DNA from: an uncultured Muribaculaceae bacterium
GTDB lineage: Bacteria; Bacillota_I; Bacilli_A; RF39; UBA660
Assembly (NCBI GenBank): GCA_964430695.1
Contig: CAYSFO010000002.1
Span: forward strand, 1-60,281
Direction: 5' to 3'
DNA length: 60,281 nucleotides
Shown here: positions 46,023-53,412 of the stretch, piece after piece
Numbering within the stretch: position 1 is the stretch's first letter
Layout of the letters: the number at the start of each line of letters is the position of its first letter
Made by a program: the position numbers and the translations under genes
The notes under the pieces: model-generated
The model's input: the letters and a program-made list of their open reading frames with translations, nothing else
What the model was told of the DNA's origin: nothing
Database searches by the model: none

Positions 46023-46186
46023 ATCCATTCACCTCGTTCTTTTTTATTATAACGTATAATGTCGAAAAAATAAATTCTTTACAATTTATCTAAACTGCAA
46101 ATTTTTAAGTACGAATTAAGAGAATTGTTTTAAGCAAATTTTAAAAATGAAAAACTTTTCTTATTCTAATTTTTAAAATTCGTAAT

Positions 46187-46215
46187 TTGTTTTTGTTTTT
46201 AAAAATTGCTATCTT
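46187..46215 (+). promoter_or_regulatory. promoter of peptide gene B
   Basis: TTGTTT (46187-46192), 17 nt, TATCTT (46210-46215). Predicted start G46222 (GCGAGG...). Confidence 0.45.
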
Positions 46216-46283
46216 GTTATTGCGAGGCGCAATGTACTAGCGTTTGCCACCTTAAAAGCAAAAATGAAACGAGGTGGTTACTT

Positions 46284-46352
46284 ATGAAGAAAAAGGATTT
46301 TTTAATCACTGCTCTTCTTGTAATAATTATTCTATTAATCATTTTTGATTAA
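46284..46352 (+). CDS. 22-aa hydrophobic peptide, candidate type I toxin (copy B)
   Basis: MKKKDFLITALLVIIILLIIFD. SD GAGGTGG (46271-46277). 18 of 22 residues identical to copy A. Confidence 0.6.
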   Translation: MKKKDFLITALLVIIILLIIFD

Positions 46353-46366
46353 TTTATAACTCTTTA

Positions 46367-46379
46367 GGGGGTTTTGGAA
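46367..46379 (+). repeat. GGGGGTTTTGGAA motif, copy 2 of 3
   Basis: Exact 13-mer at the same position relative to the peptide stop codon as in copy A. Confidence 0.8.
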
Positions 46380-46447
46380 TAAAAAAAACACTATCCTGTA
46401 AAAGGAAAGTGCCAGCTTTGGCAAGCATTTATACAAGTGTCTCGCTT
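46380..46447 (-). ncRNA. candidate antitoxin sRNA B (~68 nt)
   Basis: Minus-strand promoter TTTACA-17-TATTAT (46482-46454). Start A46447 (AAGCGAGACAC...). Terminator CACUUUCC-N7-GGAUAGUG (46411-46389) plus a U8 run. Confidence 0.5.
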
Positions 46448-46469
46448 AAATAAATAATAATATAATTTG

Positions 46470-46919
46470 CTATAAATGTAAAGGTGCTGAAGATATCTTT
46501 TTCTTTTTAAACACAAATATTTTACTAAAAATGTAGTTAGCAATCGTTACAACCGCTTGGCTTATCAATTTTCCAATCGTGTCACTTCCTGATAAAAGTG
46601 TGACATAAACAAACATGATTGCCATATCCATTAAAAGCGTCAGGATACGGGAAGCAAAAAAACTTATCACTTCTTTTAAATAATGATTGGATTTACTTTT
46701 GAATACAAAAATACGATTTGTTATATAAGCAAAAGTTACTGCAAAAAGCCAAGATATAATATTTGCCACTTGTATTTCTAAAGCATTTTTAGGATCTAAG
46801 AAAGTATGGACACAAATAAAATAAGTTGCTAAACTAACAATCGTTGTTAAAACTCCAACAATAAGATAATTAACTATTTCTTCATATTTTTTATATATGC
46901 TTTTTACTTTTTGAAACAT
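46470..46919 (-). CDS. gtrA: GtrA family membrane protein
   Basis: 149 aa with 4 TM helices. ...VNYLIVGVLTTIVSLATYF... N-terminus typical of GtrA-like proteins. Overlaps the 3' end of the TagO gene. Confidence 0.85.
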   Translation of the reverse strand: MFQKVKSIYKKYEEIVNYLIVGVLTTIVSLATYFICVHTFLDPKNALEIQVANIISWLFAVTFAYITNRIFVFKSKSNHYLKEVISFFASRILTLLMDMAIMFVYVTLLSGSDTIGKLISQAVVTIANYIFSKIFVFKKKKISSAPLHL

Positions 46920-48116: not shown

Positions 48117-49571
48117 TTATTCCGTCTTATTCTTCACTTTTTTTGTACGTTTTTCTTTCTTCTTTTTCTCTTTTTTTCTATTCTCTAAAATATTGTACAT
48201 GTCATCATTTGACTCAATTACTTGCTCTGTTTCTAATATTTCTGTTTCTTTATTTTTTGATTGCTTTTCTTTTTTATGTATTTTCTTCTTTTTACCCTTC
48301 TTTTTTAATAAACAAAGGATTAATAAAAAGGCAAATATTAGTCCACCACCAAAGGCGATGCAAGCATAAAGATAAATCTTTTGATCTTCTTTTAATGCAT
48401 TAATTTCTTCTTGGTTCCAAATTTGAAAAGTTTGTCCTTTTGTATCATAACTATAATAGTCATACTCTCCTGTTTCTATATTCATTCCATAAACAACGAC
48501 AAATCGACTATTTTCACTATATTTATAACAAGGAACTTCAACGGCATTTATAGTAATTGTTCCCTTCTCATAATTCGCTATTTTTTCAGGGAAATCCGTT
48601 AAGTATAGACTTAGTGTATTTGAATTAAACTCATTATAAATTTTATATTCATTCTTTTCTTTATCATAGATAGCAAGTAAAATATTTCCTGATTCGTCTT
48701 TTAAGCCCACTAAAGTAAAACCATTTGCTTCATTTTTAAAAGCAGGTACTTCAATTTCTCCGATTGTAATTGTAGTATCTTCATAAGCTAGTGGTTTGGT
48801 AATAATATCTACACGTTTTATTACTACATAATTTTGATTGCCTATTTTTACAGTAATTGGATTTAAGTCTTCCACTTCTATATTGACAACATAAGTTTTG
48901 GTACTACCATTTTGGGCAGCAACTACAATTTCAAAACGGTTATTTCCTTCTACAACTTCATGTTCTCCATCTCCACTTATTGTTGCGGTATTATCATTTT
49001 TTGTTGCTATAATATTTACGCTCGTAACATCTGATGGAATTGATAAATTGTATTCCAAAGTATCTTTATTAAATTCTGGGGTTAATTCATATCCTTGTAC
49101 ACCTAATGCTTTTAAATTATTATCTTTACTATAAGTCGCCTCTAGCTCTGCTTGTGTCATTAGTCGCATAGAAAGACCACTAGAAGATAAAGACATTTGA
49201 CTTAAGTCTGAGAATGCATATGCTGCATAACTATTAACAGAAACTTTTGTAGAACCGCTTTTTAATACTTTAAAAGTAAAGGTATAGCTTTTTGACTTTA
49301 TCGCTGATGAGGAAGAAGCAACCATAGAAGTTCCATTTCCTTCTGCACTACTACTAACTAATGATAAATAAGATTTATCATAACTTAAATCCATTTGCCA
49401 ACTTCCTATTACCGCACTGTTACTAGAAAGTGTAACTGTAACCTTAACATTATTTCCAACAACGGCTGTGCCAGATCCTGTTACTCGTATTGTTCCACTC
49501 GCAGCATTCGTTATGATGGGAAATAGCAATAAGGTTACTAATCCTAAAAGTGCAATTTTAATTTTTTTCAT
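48117..49571 (-). CDS. membrane-anchored surface protein: signal peptide, cohesin-like domain, cadherin-like beta-sandwich domain, TM helix, Lys-rich cytoplasmic tail
   Basis: 484 aa. Signal peptide ...PIITNA. VGNNVKVTVTLSSNSAVIGSWQMDLSYDKSYLSLVS resembles type I cohesins. LKALGVQGYELTPEFNKDTLEYNLSIP...TYVVNIEV is a cadherin-like module. C-terminal TM helix plus KKKGKKKK tail. Confidence 0.65.
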   Translation of the reverse strand: MKKIKIALLGLVTLLLFPIITNAASGTIRVTGSGTAVVGNNVKVTVTLSSNSAVIGSWQMDLSYDKSYLSLVSSSAEGNGTSMVASSSSAIKSKSYTFTFKVLKSGSTKVSVNSYAAYAFSDLSQMSLSSSGLSMRLMTQAELEATYSKDNNLKALGVQGYELTPEFNKDTLEYNLSIPSDVTSVNIIATKNDNTATISGDGEHEVVEGNNRFEIVVAAQNGSTKTYVVNIEVEDLNPITVKIGNQNYVVIKRVDIITKPLAYEDTTITIGEIEVPAFKNEANGFTLVGLKDESGNILLAIYDKEKNEYKIYNEFNSNTLSLYLTDFPEKIANYEKGTITINAVEVPCYKYSENSRFVVVYGMNIETGEYDYYSYDTKGQTFQIWNQEEINALKEDQKIYLYACIAFGGGLIFAFLLILCLLKKKGKKKKIHKKEKQSKNKETEILETEQVIESNDDMYNILENRKKEKKKKEKRTKKVKNKTE

Positions 49572-49579
49572 AATTCCTC

Positions 49580-51292
49580 CTATTGATTAATTGTATATAA
49601 TCCTAAAATATTTTTTTGAATTTGTAATAAATCTAATGCATTGATTGTTCCATCTCCTGATGTATCTCCAGCTAAGAAAGTAGCACCAGATAAGGAGTAA
49701 GAACCTAAAATATTTTTTTGCACTTGCAATAAATCTAGAGCATTGATTGTTCCATCTCCTGATGTATCTCCTTTGACTACTGCTTGTAGCACTTCCGTAG
49801 TAGAACTGTTTGAAACGGAAACTTTAAATCCTGTTCCAATTGTACCAGATTCTACACGAGATCCACTGGCATTTGTTACAAAAATATTGGAACTACCACT
49901 TACTGCTTGCAAGGAACTTATAATTGTCGACACATCAGTACCGGCAGGTATTCCCGCCATATAACCATTTGTATATTTATATCCACTGGAAGTAACAATG
50001 GTACTTATTGGTAAAGAATTAGCATTACTTGAATCATCCCCCGATGCTCCACTATTACTATTGGTAATCGTCGCATTCATATTGTTATATATAGGGATAT
50101 AAAACGTAAATCCAAGATTTAATATCTGTAATGTACTATAAGAAGAATAGGTCGTTTTAGATTCATCACTCGGAGCAGAAATATTAGTCATATATTGATG
50201 AATATAAAGATTACTAGATACTGAAGGAGCAACATTAAATTTTTGCAAATAAGTTGTATATTGCCCTACATCAATATAATTAGAAGCTAATAATTTAGCG
50301 GCTCCTTGAATCGCCAAAAGAGGGGTCGTCCATCCACGTTGTTCCGCATAAGCAATACCACAATTTGTAGCTCCTGTACTCGTTGCACAAGAATCATTGA
50401 TTCCATAATTAAAGAAATTATAGACACCATGCGTTCCACTATATAAATCTTGCAAACTGTTACTTGTTCCTAACTCTTTATTCATCCTTGAAGCTAAGAA
50501 AATAGGACTTACGTTTGTACTACTTCCTGCACTCGTTGTAATTGATGCTAAATCAACGCCTCTATTTAAATTATATTTATAAAATTCACTACTTCCAATA
50601 ATTGCCTTTACTCCTGTTGGATAATAACTAGAAATAGCAGAATCATATTTTAAATAATTAAATTGAAATATATATTTTTCATCAAACCAGTTTCTTGGAT
50701 CCATATAAAGTGCAACAGCTGTTTGACTGGCTGGATACCAAGACTTTGCATAATCTCCATTACAAGAAGTATCTATATAATTATAATTAGTCGAAGAAGC
50801 AAACGAAATATAACTTTTCTTACAGGCACTTTCTTTTTCAACAGCAGTAGACCAATCCAGATTTGTTACTATCGGTTGAAAATTCCAATTGGGATATTTC
50901 TCTTTTAAACTACATAACCCTGCCCAATAACTAGAAGGAAAACCTAAATTTGATAAATTTCTTTCACAATCGGTTGTTGGTGCTAATCCATCTGTAGAAA
51001 CCGCAACAACACTAAGTAAAGTCGAACAAACATAACCTGTTGTGCTATCATTATAAACAATTTTATACCATCCAGGACTACAGCCAGTACCTGTATATAC
51101 ATTATTATCCGCTAAATAATATTTAGAACCAGATTTTAAAGTTGTAATTTCAGAAGTATTTGTTCCAGGAGAAACTCTTAAACTCGCATTGTTATAAGTC
51201 ACTATTGCAACTTTTGAACTCGCCGATACTTTTGGCAAAGCTAAGAAAAATGCAAATAGAAAACAAAGTGCCAGTATCATTTTTTTTTGCAT
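49580..51292 (-). CDS. secreted peptidoglycan hydrolase: SH3b-like domain, GH73-like glucosaminidase domain, C-terminal type I dockerin
   Basis: Start set at MQKKMILALCFLF (AGGTGAAG SD). ...SPIFLASRMNKELGTS...YNFFNYG...GQYTTYLQKFNV resembles GH73 autolysins. The C-terminus carries two GDTSGDGTINALDLLQ(V/I)QKNILG Ca-binding dockerin repeats (49583-49780). Confidence 0.7.
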   Translation of the reverse strand: MQKKMILALCFLFAFFLALPKVSASSKVAIVTYNNASLRVSPGTNTSEITTLKSGSKYYLADNNVYTGTGCSPGWYKIVYNDSTTGYVCSTLLSVVAVSTDGLAPTTDCERNLSNLGFPSSYWAGLCSLKEKYPNWNFQPIVTNLDWSTAVEKESACKKSYISFASSTNYNYIDTSCNGDYAKSWYPASQTAVALYMDPRNWFDEKYIFQFNYLKYDSAISSYYPTGVKAIIGSSEFYKYNLNRGVDLASITTSAGSSTNVSPIFLASRMNKELGTSNSLQDLYSGTHGVYNFFNYGINDSCATSTGATNCGIAYAEQRGWTTPLLAIQGAAKLLASNYIDVGQYTTYLQKFNVAPSVSSNLYIHQYMTNISAPSDESKTTYSSYSTLQILNLGFTFYIPIYNNMNATITNSNSGASGDDSSNANSLPISTIVTSSGYKYTNGYMAGIPAGTDVSTIISSLQAVSGSSNIFVTNASGSRVESGTIGTGFKVSVSNSSTTEVLQAVVKGDTSGDGTINALDLLQVQKNILGSYSLSGATFLAGDTSGDGTINALDLLQIQKNILGLYTINQ

Positions 51293-51441
51293 TTTTTCTT
51301 CACCTACCTTTATCTTTTTATTTAGTATAACATTTTTCGACATTATTTTAAAGTATAAGTTCTATTTGTAAAGTAAATGATTATTGTATTTATCTTTCAT
51401 TTCATTATATAATAATAAAATAAGAGAGGATATGACAACGA

Positions 51442-53412
51442 ATGAAAATACTATGGAAAAAAATTAAAAATGCCAATCGATTTGCTTTAGCCATTTATCT
51501 TTTGTCCAATATATTATATTTTATTGGATATGTTTTATTCGCTAAATGTCTGCTTAATTTAGTAGGTATTGAAACTTTTATTCGTGTTCTTTTCCTTATC
51601 GTGTCCCTTCTTTGGTTGATGGTTTATTTCTTATTTGGTTTATCCACTATGCTTGTAAGAAAATATAAAAAATTTATTGTTCTTACGATAATTCAACTTA
51701 TTTTATTTATTGCCATGCTTTTTGTATCTATCTTTATCAATAAGATTTATAGCAAACTAGAAATGATTTCTTCTCAAGAATATACACTTTATACAACAAA
51801 TTTAATTGCTTTAAATAAAACAGAGTTAACAAATACTAGTAAATTAGGAATGATTGATAATAATGAGGACATTGAAGGATATGTTCTTGCAAACAGTTTA
51901 AAAGCAAAAGAAAATTTAAAACAAAATGTAACCTATTATGATGATTATTACTCTATGCTAATTGCTCTATATAAGGGAGAAGTTGATGCTATCTTTGTTT
52001 CTAGTAATTATGCCATCATTTTTAGTAGTGAAGAATCTTATGAAAATATTGCCCAAGAAACAAAAGTATTATTTACCTATAGTGAAGAAATGAAAACAAA
52101 AACAATTACTAATACTAATAAGAAACTAACAGAACCCTTTACTATTCTTTTAATGGGTGTGGATTCTGCAACCGATGGACTAAATGCCAATGCGGCTTTT
52201 AACGGAGATACTTTAATGCTTATTACATTTAATCCAAATACTTTAACGGCAACTATGTTTAGTATTCCAAGAGATACTTATGTCCCCATTGCTTGTAATA
52301 ACAATCGTTCTCATAAGATTAATTCCTCTGCTGCTTACGGAACAGAATGTGTCGTTAATACCGTTCAAAATCTAGTAGATATTAATATTGATTACTATGC
52401 CAAAATTAATTTCAATGGTGTGATTGATTTAGTTAATGCTTTAGGTGGAATCGATGTTGATGTTGAAGAACCAGACTATAACACTTATGTTAAACGATAT
52501 GGACAGGGTAGATTATGTGAAAGTAATTCTTTTAGAGATATGAACAATTTAGTTTGTATGAATACGGGAATGCAACATTTAAACGGAGAACAAGCACTTG
52601 CTTATGCTCGTAACCGTCATGGCTTTTTAACAAGTGACCTAGCTCGTAACAAACACCAACAACAAATTGTTGAAGCCATTGCAAAACAAGTATTAAAGAT
52701 TCGAAACTTTAGTGATTTTGAAAAATTACTAGAAGTCGTTGGTAAAAATATTGCAACAAATTTATCAACAACGCAAATGCTTTCTTTTTATCAAACCATT
52801 AAAAACATGTTTGTAGAGGGATTGAAAGGAAAAGATTTTATTTCCATCCAAAAGACATATTTAGAAGTTTATAATTTACCTATTATAGCCAGTGGTTTAA
52901 CATTATCAGCACTTGGATATTATGATGATAGTTTAAAGGCGATTAAAGAGGCCTTAGAAGTAAATTTAGGTATTAAAAAAGAGGAAATGATTAAAACATT
53001 TGCTTATGATTACAATGAAGAATACACCTCTCCTATTGTTGGTAAAGGATTAACGGGTGGAAAACTCGAAAGCACTATTCCAAACTTAAAAGGAAACACG
53101 GTAAGTTTTGCACAAGAATGGGCAGCAAATAATAACATAAATTTAAATGTTGAATTCACTTGTAGTACAGATACTCCTGGTTTAATTGGAGATCAAAGTG
53201 TAAGTGCTGGGATTTCTATGAAAAGTATCTCTTCTCTAACAATTTATGTAAATGAATTTTGTAGTGATTCAACTGCATCAAATAATAGCCATACAAATAC
53301 GAATAATGCTGATGATAATACAAATAATAATAATAAAGAGGATGAGGATGAAGAAATTATAAATACGATTCCTGGAAGTCCATCCAATAAAAATGATAAA
53401 GAAGATGAATAA
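51442..53412 (+). CDS. LytR-CpsA-Psr (LCP) family glycopolymer ligase with PASTA-like domain and Asn/Asp-rich tail
   Basis: 656 aa. N-terminal TM helices. LCP core FTILLMGVDS...GDTLMLITF...SIPRDTYV...INFNGVIDLVNALGGIDV. PASTA-like IPNLKGNTVSFAQEWAANNNINLNVEF...LTIYV. Confidence 0.85.
   Translation: MKILWKKIKNANRFALAIYLLSNILYFIGYVLFAKCLLNLVGIETFIRVLFLIVSLLWLMVYFLFGLSTMLVRKYKKFIVLTIIQLILFIAMLFVSIFINKIYSKLEMISSQEYTLYTTNLIALNKTELTNTSKLGMIDNNEDIEGYVLANSLKAKENLKQNVTYYDDYYSMLIALYKGEVDAIFVSSNYAIIFSSEESYENIAQETKVLFTYSEEMKTKTITNTNKKLTEPFTILLMGVDSATDGLNANAAFNGDTLMLITFNPNTLTATMFSIPRDTYVPIACNNNRSHKINSSAAYGTECVVNTVQNLVDINIDYYAKINFNGVIDLVNALGGIDVDVEEPDYNTYVKRYGQGRLCESNSFRDMNNLVCMNTGMQHLNGEQALAYARNRHGFLTSDLARNKHQQQIVEAIAKQVLKIRNFSDFEKLLEVVGKNIATNLSTTQMLSFYQTIKNMFVEGLKGKDFISIQKTYLEVYNLPIIASGLTLSALGYYDDSLKAIKEALEVNLGIKKEEMIKTFAYDYNEEYTSPIVGKGLTGGKLESTIPNLKGNTVSFAQEWAANNNINLNVEFTCSTDTPGLIGDQSVSAGISMKSISSLTIYVNEFCSDSTASNNSHTNTNNADDNTNNNNKEDEDEEIINTIPGSPSNKNDKEDE

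Follow-up and report, generated by a model that had tools for sequence, protein, structure and literature searches.

What purpose is served by a short intergenic unit that occurs twice among the cell-envelope genes of an uncultured gut bacterium, with a 22-codon open reading frame (ORF) on one strand and a convergent promoter on the other? The question is raised by a stretch of 60,281 nucleotides (nt), hereafter the window, that comprises positions 1 to 60,281 of GenBank contig CAYSFO010000002.1 (assembly GCA_964430695.1; titled uncultured Muribaculaceae, GTDB lineage RF39, UBA660). The unit under study is module B (approximately 46175–46482), and its paralogue on the same strand is module A (approximately 20240–20540). 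Module B is probably a chromosomal type I toxin–antitoxin-like cassette with a 3′-overlapping antisense RNA. Its plus strand carries the gene of a small hydrophobic peptide, while its minus strand carries that of a predicted RNA exactly complementary to the 3′ untranslated region (UTR) of the peptide mRNA. Alignments of the module with its homologues establish its anatomy, its conservation, selection on its coding sequence and structures that are specific to one strand.

Modules A and B and their relatives in other genomes

An initial annotation had described module B as a second copy of a peptide/small RNA unit. All of its coordinates and sequence statements that were checked hold, including the promoters, the ORF, the Shine–Dalgarno (SD) and anti-SD sequences, the terminator arms and the distance between the two predicted transcription starts (226 nt in B, 227 nt in A). 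The copy relationship itself is confirmed by a mean column identity of 83% over approximately 360 nt (75% over the transcript core) and by the family profile, which matches both modules with E = 1e-42 to 1e-46. Furthermore, A and B share a 20-mer and a 15-mer that have a full match nowhere else, where shuffles expect 0.03–0.08. The similarity is therefore not due to chance. The features of module B, and those of module A for comparison, are as follows.

46175–46189, plus strand: palindrome-like element AAAATT-CGT-AATTTG, overlapping the −35 of the peptide-gene promoter
46187–46215, plus strand: predicted sigma-70-type promoter of the peptide mRNA, TTGTTT (46187–46192), 17 nt, TATCTT (46210–46215)
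46222–46445, plus strand: predicted core of the mRNA for the peptide (putative toxin), reaching from its predicted start through the closing-helix 3′ strand
46222–46248, plus strand: 5′ strand of the closing helix P1 (GCGAGGCGCAAUGUACUAGCGUUUGCC)
46246–46252, plus strand: anti-SD GCCACCU, pairing with 46272–46278
46272–46278, plus strand: SD core AGGUGGU, 5 nt before AUG
46284–46352, plus strand: 22-residue peptide ORF, encoding MKKKDFLITALLVIIILLIIFD
46367–46379, plus strand: GGGGGUUUUGGAA motif in the 3′ UTR, SD-like
46381–46447, minus strand: predicted antisense small RNA (putative antitoxin) of about 67 nt, with stem-loop SL1 and terminator SL2 (46411–46389), then U8
46420–46445, plus strand: 3′ strand of the closing helix P1 (GGCAAGCAUUUAUACAAGUGUCUCGC), also the template for the 5′ domain of the small RNA
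46482–46454, minus strand: antisense-RNA promoter TTTACA-17-TATTAT, overlapping the last codons of the GtrA-like gene
Module A: mRNA core 20278–20502, plus strand; ORF 20335–20403, plus strand; antisense RNA 20504–20429, minus strand; antisense promoter 20539–20511, minus strand

The predicted plus-strand start of module B is GCGAG from 46222, while its minus-strand promoter precedes AAGCGAGACAC. The latter matches 10 of the 12 consensus positions and was called independently by a consensus scan, as was the antisense promoter of module A (TTTACT-17-TATTAT). Both the −35 (CTTTAC) and the −10 of the antisense promoter are conserved in the homologues. The conserved block as a whole extends from about 50 nt upstream of the mRNA start to this −35 on the minus strand and stops right after it, so that both promoters belong to the module unit. 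The arrangement AAATT-N3-4-ATTTG at the upstream end is common to the homologues in a 12-sequence extended alignment (46175–46189 and 20234–20249 in the window) and might serve as an operator, as an UP element or as an insulating terminator. Loci L002, L003 and L018 form a subgroup in which an inverted repeat, ACAGA...TCTGT, takes the place of this element or comes before it, with a T run following the repeat.

Further copies are not restricted to the window. A two-block DNA pattern run against species-representative genomes matched 18 places, 15 of which are full-length homologues in 10 metagenome-assembled genomes (MAGs); the remaining three (L010, L013 and L015) are chance matches of the pattern in high-GC genomes. 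A second pattern, which combined the ORF with the 3′ UTR motif and did not fix the RNA ends, gave 12 matches in metagenomes, only one of which (L021) is real. Copy number and location were thus surveyed over 16 further copies in 11 other assemblies, and some of the positions prove to be syntenic. Most carriers are titled uncultured Bacilli or Tenericutes, several of them from a mouse-gut catalogue; two Muribaculaceae and one Ruminococcus are also among the titles. Two copies are present in each of five of the 10 MAGs from the genome scan, and the window likewise holds two of the A/B type. Paralogues within one genome are often mutually nearest relatives, which together with the synteny suggests gene conversion between the copies.

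As a side observation, the loci L003, L004, L007 and L019 (CAYMVR01, CAZIDI01), titled uncultured Muribaculaceae, are surrounded by low-GC genes of Firmicutes type, including FemAB and a family 4 glycosyltransferase (GT4, WecA-like). This gene content matches that of the Bacilli and Tenericutes MAGs; the titles are probably wrong, or the bins mixed.

The two-block pattern found no match on viral contigs, and blastn in distant mode found none among plasmid and phage records. The whole window contains no Rfam match at the gathering threshold and no tRNA or tmRNA. Permissive Rfam scans (E up to 10) around A and B returned chance-level matches only, for example RsaD with 21.8 bits against a gathering score of 50. 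No description of the module family was found in the searchable literature, where peptide-fragment searches returned only noise from optical character recognition. To date, uncultured gut bacteria are the only known carriers of the family, and none of Rfam, Pfam, NCBIfam and PHROGs contains it.

The family profile also revealed a third, related module C (57060–57430, plus strand; E = 0.0013). Its ORF (57200–57286) encodes the 28 residues MNKEYVLILVYVLLVIIIMLIVVILRLV behind the SD sequence AGGAGGAGG. On the minus strand, TTGTAA-16-TATAAT is a convergent promoter, and a hairpin resembling a terminator is followed by a U run that ends beside the stop codon. Module C is 83% identical to a copy in L012 (1530–1900, minus strand), where an A/B-type module is present as well. 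All three modules of the window contain the 13-mer GGGGGTTTTGGAA (20418–20430, 46367–46379 and 57170–57182). In A and B, it lies 12–20 nt past the stop codon, whereas in C it precedes the SD sequence by 5 nt. Just upstream of the C-type ORF of L012, the motif and the 3′ half of an A/B-like ORF can be aligned, which suggests that module C arose by tandem duplication and that the first ORF subsequently decayed. The SD-like motif (GGGGGUUUUGG) has no consistent intramolecular pairing partner across the copies. Module C goes beyond what the initial annotation contained, as do the conserved syntenic family in divergent uncultured gut Bacilli and the 5′–3′ closing helix of the mRNA.

The peptide and the two RNAs

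Four of the 22 residues distinguish the peptides of modules B (MKKKDFLITALLVIIILLIIFD) and A (MSKKDFLITILLLIIILLIIFG), and synonymous differences affect codons 4, 11 and 18, exactly as annotated. The peptide of module B has a charged N-terminus followed by 16 consecutive hydrophobic residues. The family consensus is MSKKDFLILILLVIIILLILFx, and all members comprise 22 residues except those at L007 and L005. A comparison of 14 different ORF sequences shows variation at 15 of 21 first, 6 of 21 second and all 21 third codon positions. The mean nonsynonymous diversity (pN) is 0.17 and the mean synonymous diversity (pS) 0.65, with a pN/pS of about 0.26, and stop codons abound in both alternative frames. 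Purifying selection acts on the 22-codon ORF, and the earlier argument that the synonymous changes reflect selection on the peptide itself is borne out. The ORF also contains a 5-bp hairpin in codons 5–8 (GAUUUUUUAAUC; columns 83–96 of alignment A2, window 46296–46307), which covaries between GAU/AUC and GAC/GUU in 6 sequences. This two-sided change couples a synonymous change of the Asp codon (GAU to GAC) to the replacement of Ile by Val (AUC to GUU).

With a hydrophobic product of fewer than 60 residues and an SD sequence AGGUGG(U) located 3–6 nt from the start codon, the ORF has the build of a type I toxin gene. Several copies carry changes that inactivate or weaken it. At L005 (6899–7106), the start region reads ATG TAA, leaving a dead ORF in an otherwise intact module with all RNA elements. 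GTG replaces the start codon at L002 and L016, and a G-to-A change affects the SD sequence at L008. Judged from sequence, such variants are of the kind expected of a harmful product. At L007 (3826–4041), the stop codon is lost and a 34-residue product reads through the G-rich motif.

On the plus strand, the mRNA core of module B has a minimum free energy (MFE) of −64.3 kcal/mol (z = −5.0, 200 shuffles) and that of module A −66.4 kcal/mol (z = −4.6), while the reverse complement of the B core reaches only −47.3 kcal/mol (z = −2.5). The first ~27 nt and the last ~26 nt of the mRNA form the closing helix P1 of 22–23 bp, whose cofolding energy across the copies is −18 to −30 kcal/mol, compared with −8 to −13 kcal/mol for a shuffled partner. 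In module B, 46222–46248 and 46420–46445 cofold with −27.9 kcal/mol (−12.8 ± 2.3 kcal/mol with the shuffled partner). A variable internal loop divides P1 into P1a at the terminus (GYGAGRYRY with GUGUCUCGC) and P1b on the inner side (...CUUGCC with GGCAAG...), and the GCGAG start common to both RNAs makes up one end of P1. In a 17-sequence alignment, P1a is 99.2% paired. Five of its eight pairs vary, always on the 5′ side and always as A/G opposite U or C/U opposite G. The predicted mRNA is at least 224 nt long, its 3′ end lying beyond the P1 3′ strand. Both this strand and the 13-nt motif are more conserved than the ORF.

A second, local hairpin sequesters the SD sequence 3–6 nt before the start codon by pairing GCCAC(Y)U with AGGUGGU, and is part of the MFE fold in 17 of 17 copies. 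It pairs CCACCT (46247–46252) with AGGTGG (46272–46277) in module B and GCCGTTC with GAATGGT in module A, two pairs being changed on both sides between the copies. The anti-SD sequence of module B (CCACCU) has thus changed together with its own SD sequence (AGGUGG), as had been proposed. Since this hairpin persists in folds without the P1 3′ strand, the opening of P1 alone should not turn translation on. The mRNA therefore combines SD sequestration with 5′–3′ pairing, a structure typical of type I toxin messages. Across the family alignment, the whole consensus structure is 96.6% paired, compared with 25–43% when the partners are slid by 1–3 columns, and the observed covariation score was reached by 0 of 500 shuffles. 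The broader claim that covariation preserves every helix between the two modules stands for the SD hairpin (two pairs) and the terminator of the small RNA (one pair), but not for P1, where the differences between A and B are one-sided changes to G-U wobble pairs.

The predicted antisense RNA measures 66–80 nt across the family and consists of two stem-loops. SL1, at the 5′ end (GCGAG-A-CACUN...NAGUG-CUUGC), contains an invariant G-U pair that can form only on the minus strand, and SL2 is a G+C-rich terminator hairpin followed by a U run. Together they constitute the MFE fold in 13 of 14 copies. Two-sided changes affect 7 of the 18 consensus pairs; in the terminator, 4 pairs show such changes. 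The arms of the latter (CACUUUCC/GGAUAGUG in B, GCACCUUCC/GGAUGGUGC in A) differ by one C-G to U-A change that is compensated on both sides, in agreement with the annotated joint change of the two arms. The covariance model R1, built from the small RNAs of the family, matches module B at 46377–46447 (minus strand; 67.7 bits, E = 9e-15) and finds exactly one match per module. A search with this model found no orphan copies of the antisense RNA, and weak matches (E = 0.3–0.9) fall on the 5′ leader of several mRNAs. As far as sequence can tell, the RNA has the attributes of a type I antitoxin, namely antisense position, a conserved promoter and a covarying terminator.

The complementarity of this RNA to the 3′ UTR includes the P1 3′ strand, stops about 28 nt past the stop codon and covers none of the ORF. 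Being the complement of the P1 3′ strand, the 5′ domain of the small RNA is a Watson–Crick-perfect version of the wobble-rich 5′ end of the mRNA. Predicted duplexes of the P1 region amount to −44 kcal/mol for the non-cognate combinations of A and B and to −52 to −54 kcal/mol for the cognate ones; given these computed energies, cross-neutralization between A and B is likely. Between the small RNA and the first 75 nt of the mRNA, the energies are −19.5 kcal/mol in A (shuffles −24.3 ± 3.8) and −24.7 kcal/mol in B (shuffles −22.0 ± 4.2). As the complementarity to the translation start region does not exceed that of shuffles, a contact such as that of Fst or SprA1 is unlikely.

Proposed mechanism and alternative explanations

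From these structures, we infer how the module would be transcribed, the direction in which regulation would run, the nucleases that would be involved and the toxicity of the peptide. Transcription of the plus strand would yield a message of 224 nt or more, and the 22-residue peptide encoded on it would contain a single hydrophobic helix. The SD hairpin and P1 would keep this mRNA untranslated and stable, P1 hiding both ends from exonucleases. From the convergent minus-strand promoter, an antisense RNA would be produced that measures about 67 nt and comprises SL1 and the terminator SL2. It could then outcompete the 5′ end of the mRNA for the P1 3′ strand and open the closed mRNA, an invasion that perhaps begins at the SL1 loop, the complement of which is located in the internal loop of P1 in many copies. 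The resulting duplex of about 67 bp would be cleaved by an RNase III-type enzyme, exonucleases would destroy the mRNA, and no peptide would be made. If the antisense RNA were lost or the mRNA processed, the peptide would be translated and insert into the membrane. A small hydrophobic ORF, a sequestered SD sequence, long-distance pairing of the 5′ and 3′ ends and, above all in Gram-positive bacteria, an antisense RNA located on the 3′ side count as hallmarks of type I systems (PMC8594479).

Tentatively, a more specific proposal can be put forward: the modules may represent a type I-like family passed on vertically, whose antisense RNA would mimic the 5′ end of the mRNA, displace it and thereby "uncap" the cyclized message for decay. 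We know of no type I system with such a control logic. The cassette, whose position is retained across genera, may also be tied to envelope glycan loci rather than to mobile DNA.

The genomic setting bears directly on this proposal and on its competitors. With a low GC content (~28%), the window represents a piece of chromosome that encodes PFOR along with numerous cell-envelope proteins, nearly all of the genes being read from the minus strand. Module A is situated between the genes of a DUF6020 membrane protein and a family 2 glycosyltransferase (GT2). Module B lies between those of a family 1 glycosyltransferase (GT1)/O-antigen-ligase-like protein and a GtrA-like protein, which is followed by a GT4 (WecA-like). 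The two modules thus bracket about 26 kb (20240–46482) of minus-strand envelope glycan genes (GT2, GT1/O-antigen-ligase-like, GtrA-like and GT4), and an LCP-PASTA protein is encoded beyond this cluster (51442–53412). Elsewhere, copies have FemAB, an epimerase, phosphatidylserine decarboxylase and ABC transporters as neighbors, together with RecO, peptide deformylase, an EngB-like GTPase and a histidine kinase, which are unrelated to the envelope. All relative orientations of module and neighboring genes occur among the loci. Modules are 63–73% identical to their syntenic copies at L007 and L002; unconstrained intergenic DNA would not be expected to be alignable where the flanking proteins are only 47% identical, yet the modules are.

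Two further observations concern this neighborhood. A 587-residue protein (49580–51343, minus strand) has two C-terminal repeats GDTSGDGTINALDLLQ(V/I)QKNILG with a dockerin-like look, and its 484-residue neighbor (48117–49571, minus strand) contains the cadherin-like domain PF12733; by sequence, the pair hints at a cell-surface assembly system beside the glycan genes. The only public contig with an identical GtrA-like protein (L001; Logan contig SRR9335148_74636, 3.2 kb) ends 31 nt after the GtrA-like gene, at the edge of module B, as would be expected of an assembly break at a repeated sequence.

Several results weigh against a toxin–antitoxin function. Locus L007 occupies the same junction as module B, and L002 lies beside the same DUF6020 gene as module A, at 47% identity of the flanking proteins. 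No mobile-element gene was seen beside any copy, and no plasmid or phage link was found. This pattern suits a small protein with a housekeeping role no less than a selfish toxin cassette. Searches of the peptide against Pfam and NCBIfam (E up to 10) and PHROGs gave no match to a known toxin family, nor to any other family at a meaningful E-value. Module B itself is the weakest member with respect to the antisense-RNA fold: a C-to-U change destabilizes its SL1, and its small RNA (z = −1.85) is not clearly beyond shuffles. Its plus-strand promoter is also weak, matching 8 of 12 consensus positions and falling below the threshold of the promoter scan; support for it comes from positional conservation, a −10-like hexamer being present at a constant distance from the GAG start in all homologues of the extended alignment. 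No conserved plus-strand terminator follows P1, only weak and inconsistent AU-rich hairpins. Finally, GUGUCUCGC and GGGGGUUUUGG were part of the genome search pattern, and their invariance among those matches is partly by construction. L021 and the conservation of GGCAAGCAC are independent of that pattern, and L021 retains both GGCAAGCAC and GUGUCUCGC although it was found without requiring either.

The alternative that survives best accepts the same anatomy for a peptide that is not toxic. The product would be a conserved small membrane protein that modulates an envelope process (for instance, the synthesis or export of glycopolymers) and whose dose is set by the closed mRNA together with the antisense RNA. 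This explanation is less likely, although it accommodates the retention of module B between GT1/O-antigen-ligase-like and GT4 (WecA-like) genes in both the window and L007, the shared DUF6020 neighbor of module A and L002, the envelope-related genes near other copies, the strong purifying selection on the peptide and the missing mobile-element link. A double lock on translation together with a perfectly complementary convergent RNA is, however, typical of toxin cassettes. The same holds against it for the multiple cross-reactive copies per genome and for L005, where the start of the ORF is destroyed and the RNA parts are intact. Moreover, RecO, peptide deformylase, the EngB-like GTPase and the histidine kinase would be odd partners for an envelope regulator.

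Far less probable is a dual-function RNA, in which the plus-strand transcript would be mainly regulatory or structural, acting through its conserved ends or the GGGGGUUUUGGAA motif, with coding as a secondary role. The conservation of the P1 3′ strand and of the 13-nt motif beyond that of the ORF would agree with this explanation, as would the recurrence of the motif at a different position in module C. Yet the codon-position pattern and pN/pS show selection on the peptide itself, some of the nucleotide invariance stems from the search patterns, no target in trans was found, and the antisense complementarity to the translation start is not beyond shuffles.

That there is no gene pair at all, the unit being a miniature inverted-repeat element or a set of terminators and read-through products of flanking operons, is hardly credible: imperfect inverted repeats of about 26 nt do delimit the unit, several copies occur per genome, the antisense terminators of the window lie just downstream of minus-strand genes and a short public contig stops at the module edge, but conservation runs past the repeats into both promoters, the repeats pair through G-U wobble on one strand only, the ORF is under coding selection, and just one or two copies were recovered per genome, at least two of them at syntenic sites, while the module occurs in every orientation relative to its neighbors. 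A miniature inverted-repeat transposable element was rejected, since the conserved stretch exceeds the repeats and two of the sites keep their neighbors between genomes at 47% flanking-protein identity.

The toxin–antitoxin-like cassette thus continues to be the favored reading. The family is now defined as a whole, with its peptide, mRNA structure, antisense RNA and both promoters, and the alignments A2, A3 and A4 and the covariance model R1 can be used for annotation. Few candidate toxins of Gram-positive-type bacteria would be as short as this 22-residue peptide. Two features, an antisense RNA directed against the 3′ strand of the closing helix and retention at the same envelope-gene junctions with flanks only 47% identical, raise testable questions on the working of such cassettes and on the reasons for their persistence in chromosomes.

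Comparison with known type I systems

In all tests run, the module failed to qualify as a member of the Fst/RNAII, SprA1, TxpA/RatA, BsrG/SR4, Ibs or Hok families. The comparison with these systems is therefore one of architecture and possible mode of action.

Fst/RNAII (par of pAD1) and SprA1/SprA1as resemble the module in three respects: the host is Gram-positive, the two genes are transcribed convergently, and the antisense RNA is located on the 3′ side and leaves the ORF free. In these systems, the functional contact takes place outside the overlap, between the two 5′ regions, by means of direct repeats (T1TAdb paper). The repeats of the module, in contrast, are inverted, its small RNA resembles the 5′ end of the mRNA instead of complementing it, and the duplex with the translation start is no better than with shuffled sequences. 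Pfam and NCBIfam (E up to 10) gave no match of the peptide to the Fst toxin family, and no RNAII-like match was found in Rfam.

The Ibs/Sib pairs of E. coli encode hydrophobic peptides of 18–19 residues in several chromosomal copies, each with its own antisense RNA. The module is similar in all three respects, that is, a very short hydrophobic peptide, several chromosomal copies and one antisense RNA per copy. The Sib RNA, however, covers the whole Ibs ORF (T1TAdb paper), whereas the ORF of the module is left uncovered, and the Pfam and NCBIfam scans of the peptide gave no Ibs match.

In hok/sok and aapA1/IsoA1, the antisense RNA binds the 5′ part of the 3′-processed mRNA. The likeness to the module consists in the end-to-end helix, which makes the mRNA compact, inert and stable (PMC8594479). 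The antisense RNA of the module differs in that it complements the 3′ strand of the closing helix, while the SD sequence is located in a separate local hairpin; there is no homology between the peptides, and the hosts of the two known systems are Gram-negative.

By analogy, the module works most like the 3′-overlap pairs of Bacillus subtilis, txpA/RatA and bsrG/SR4 (also bsrE/SR5 and yonT/SR6). In these, too, a hydrophobic peptide gene faces a convergent small-RNA gene, the small RNA perfectly complements the toxin mRNA in its 3′ part, and the SD sequence lies within a helix. Decay of the 3′-overlapping duplex by RNase III has been described for txpA/RatA (PMC3531473) and for bsrG/SR4 (PMC3834814). 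Differences are nevertheless evident. The module peptide is shorter and has no detectable homology to these toxins, with no protein-family match and no Rfam family at the gathering score in the window. Antisense RNAs of the TxpA/RatA and BsrG/SR4 type also overlap the ORF (T1TAdb paper), while the overlap in the module is limited to the 3′ UTR and ends about 28 nt after the stop codon. The module is, furthermore, a stable chromosomal resident and not a prophage gene, and its target includes the 3′ strand of a 5′–3′ closing helix. To our knowledge, such a target has not been described for any of these pairs. The modules are best described as a new type I toxin–antitoxin-like family in uncultured gut Bacilli, which shares the convergent 3′-overlap layout of the B. 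subtilis pairs and has 5′-end mimicry as its unusual feature.

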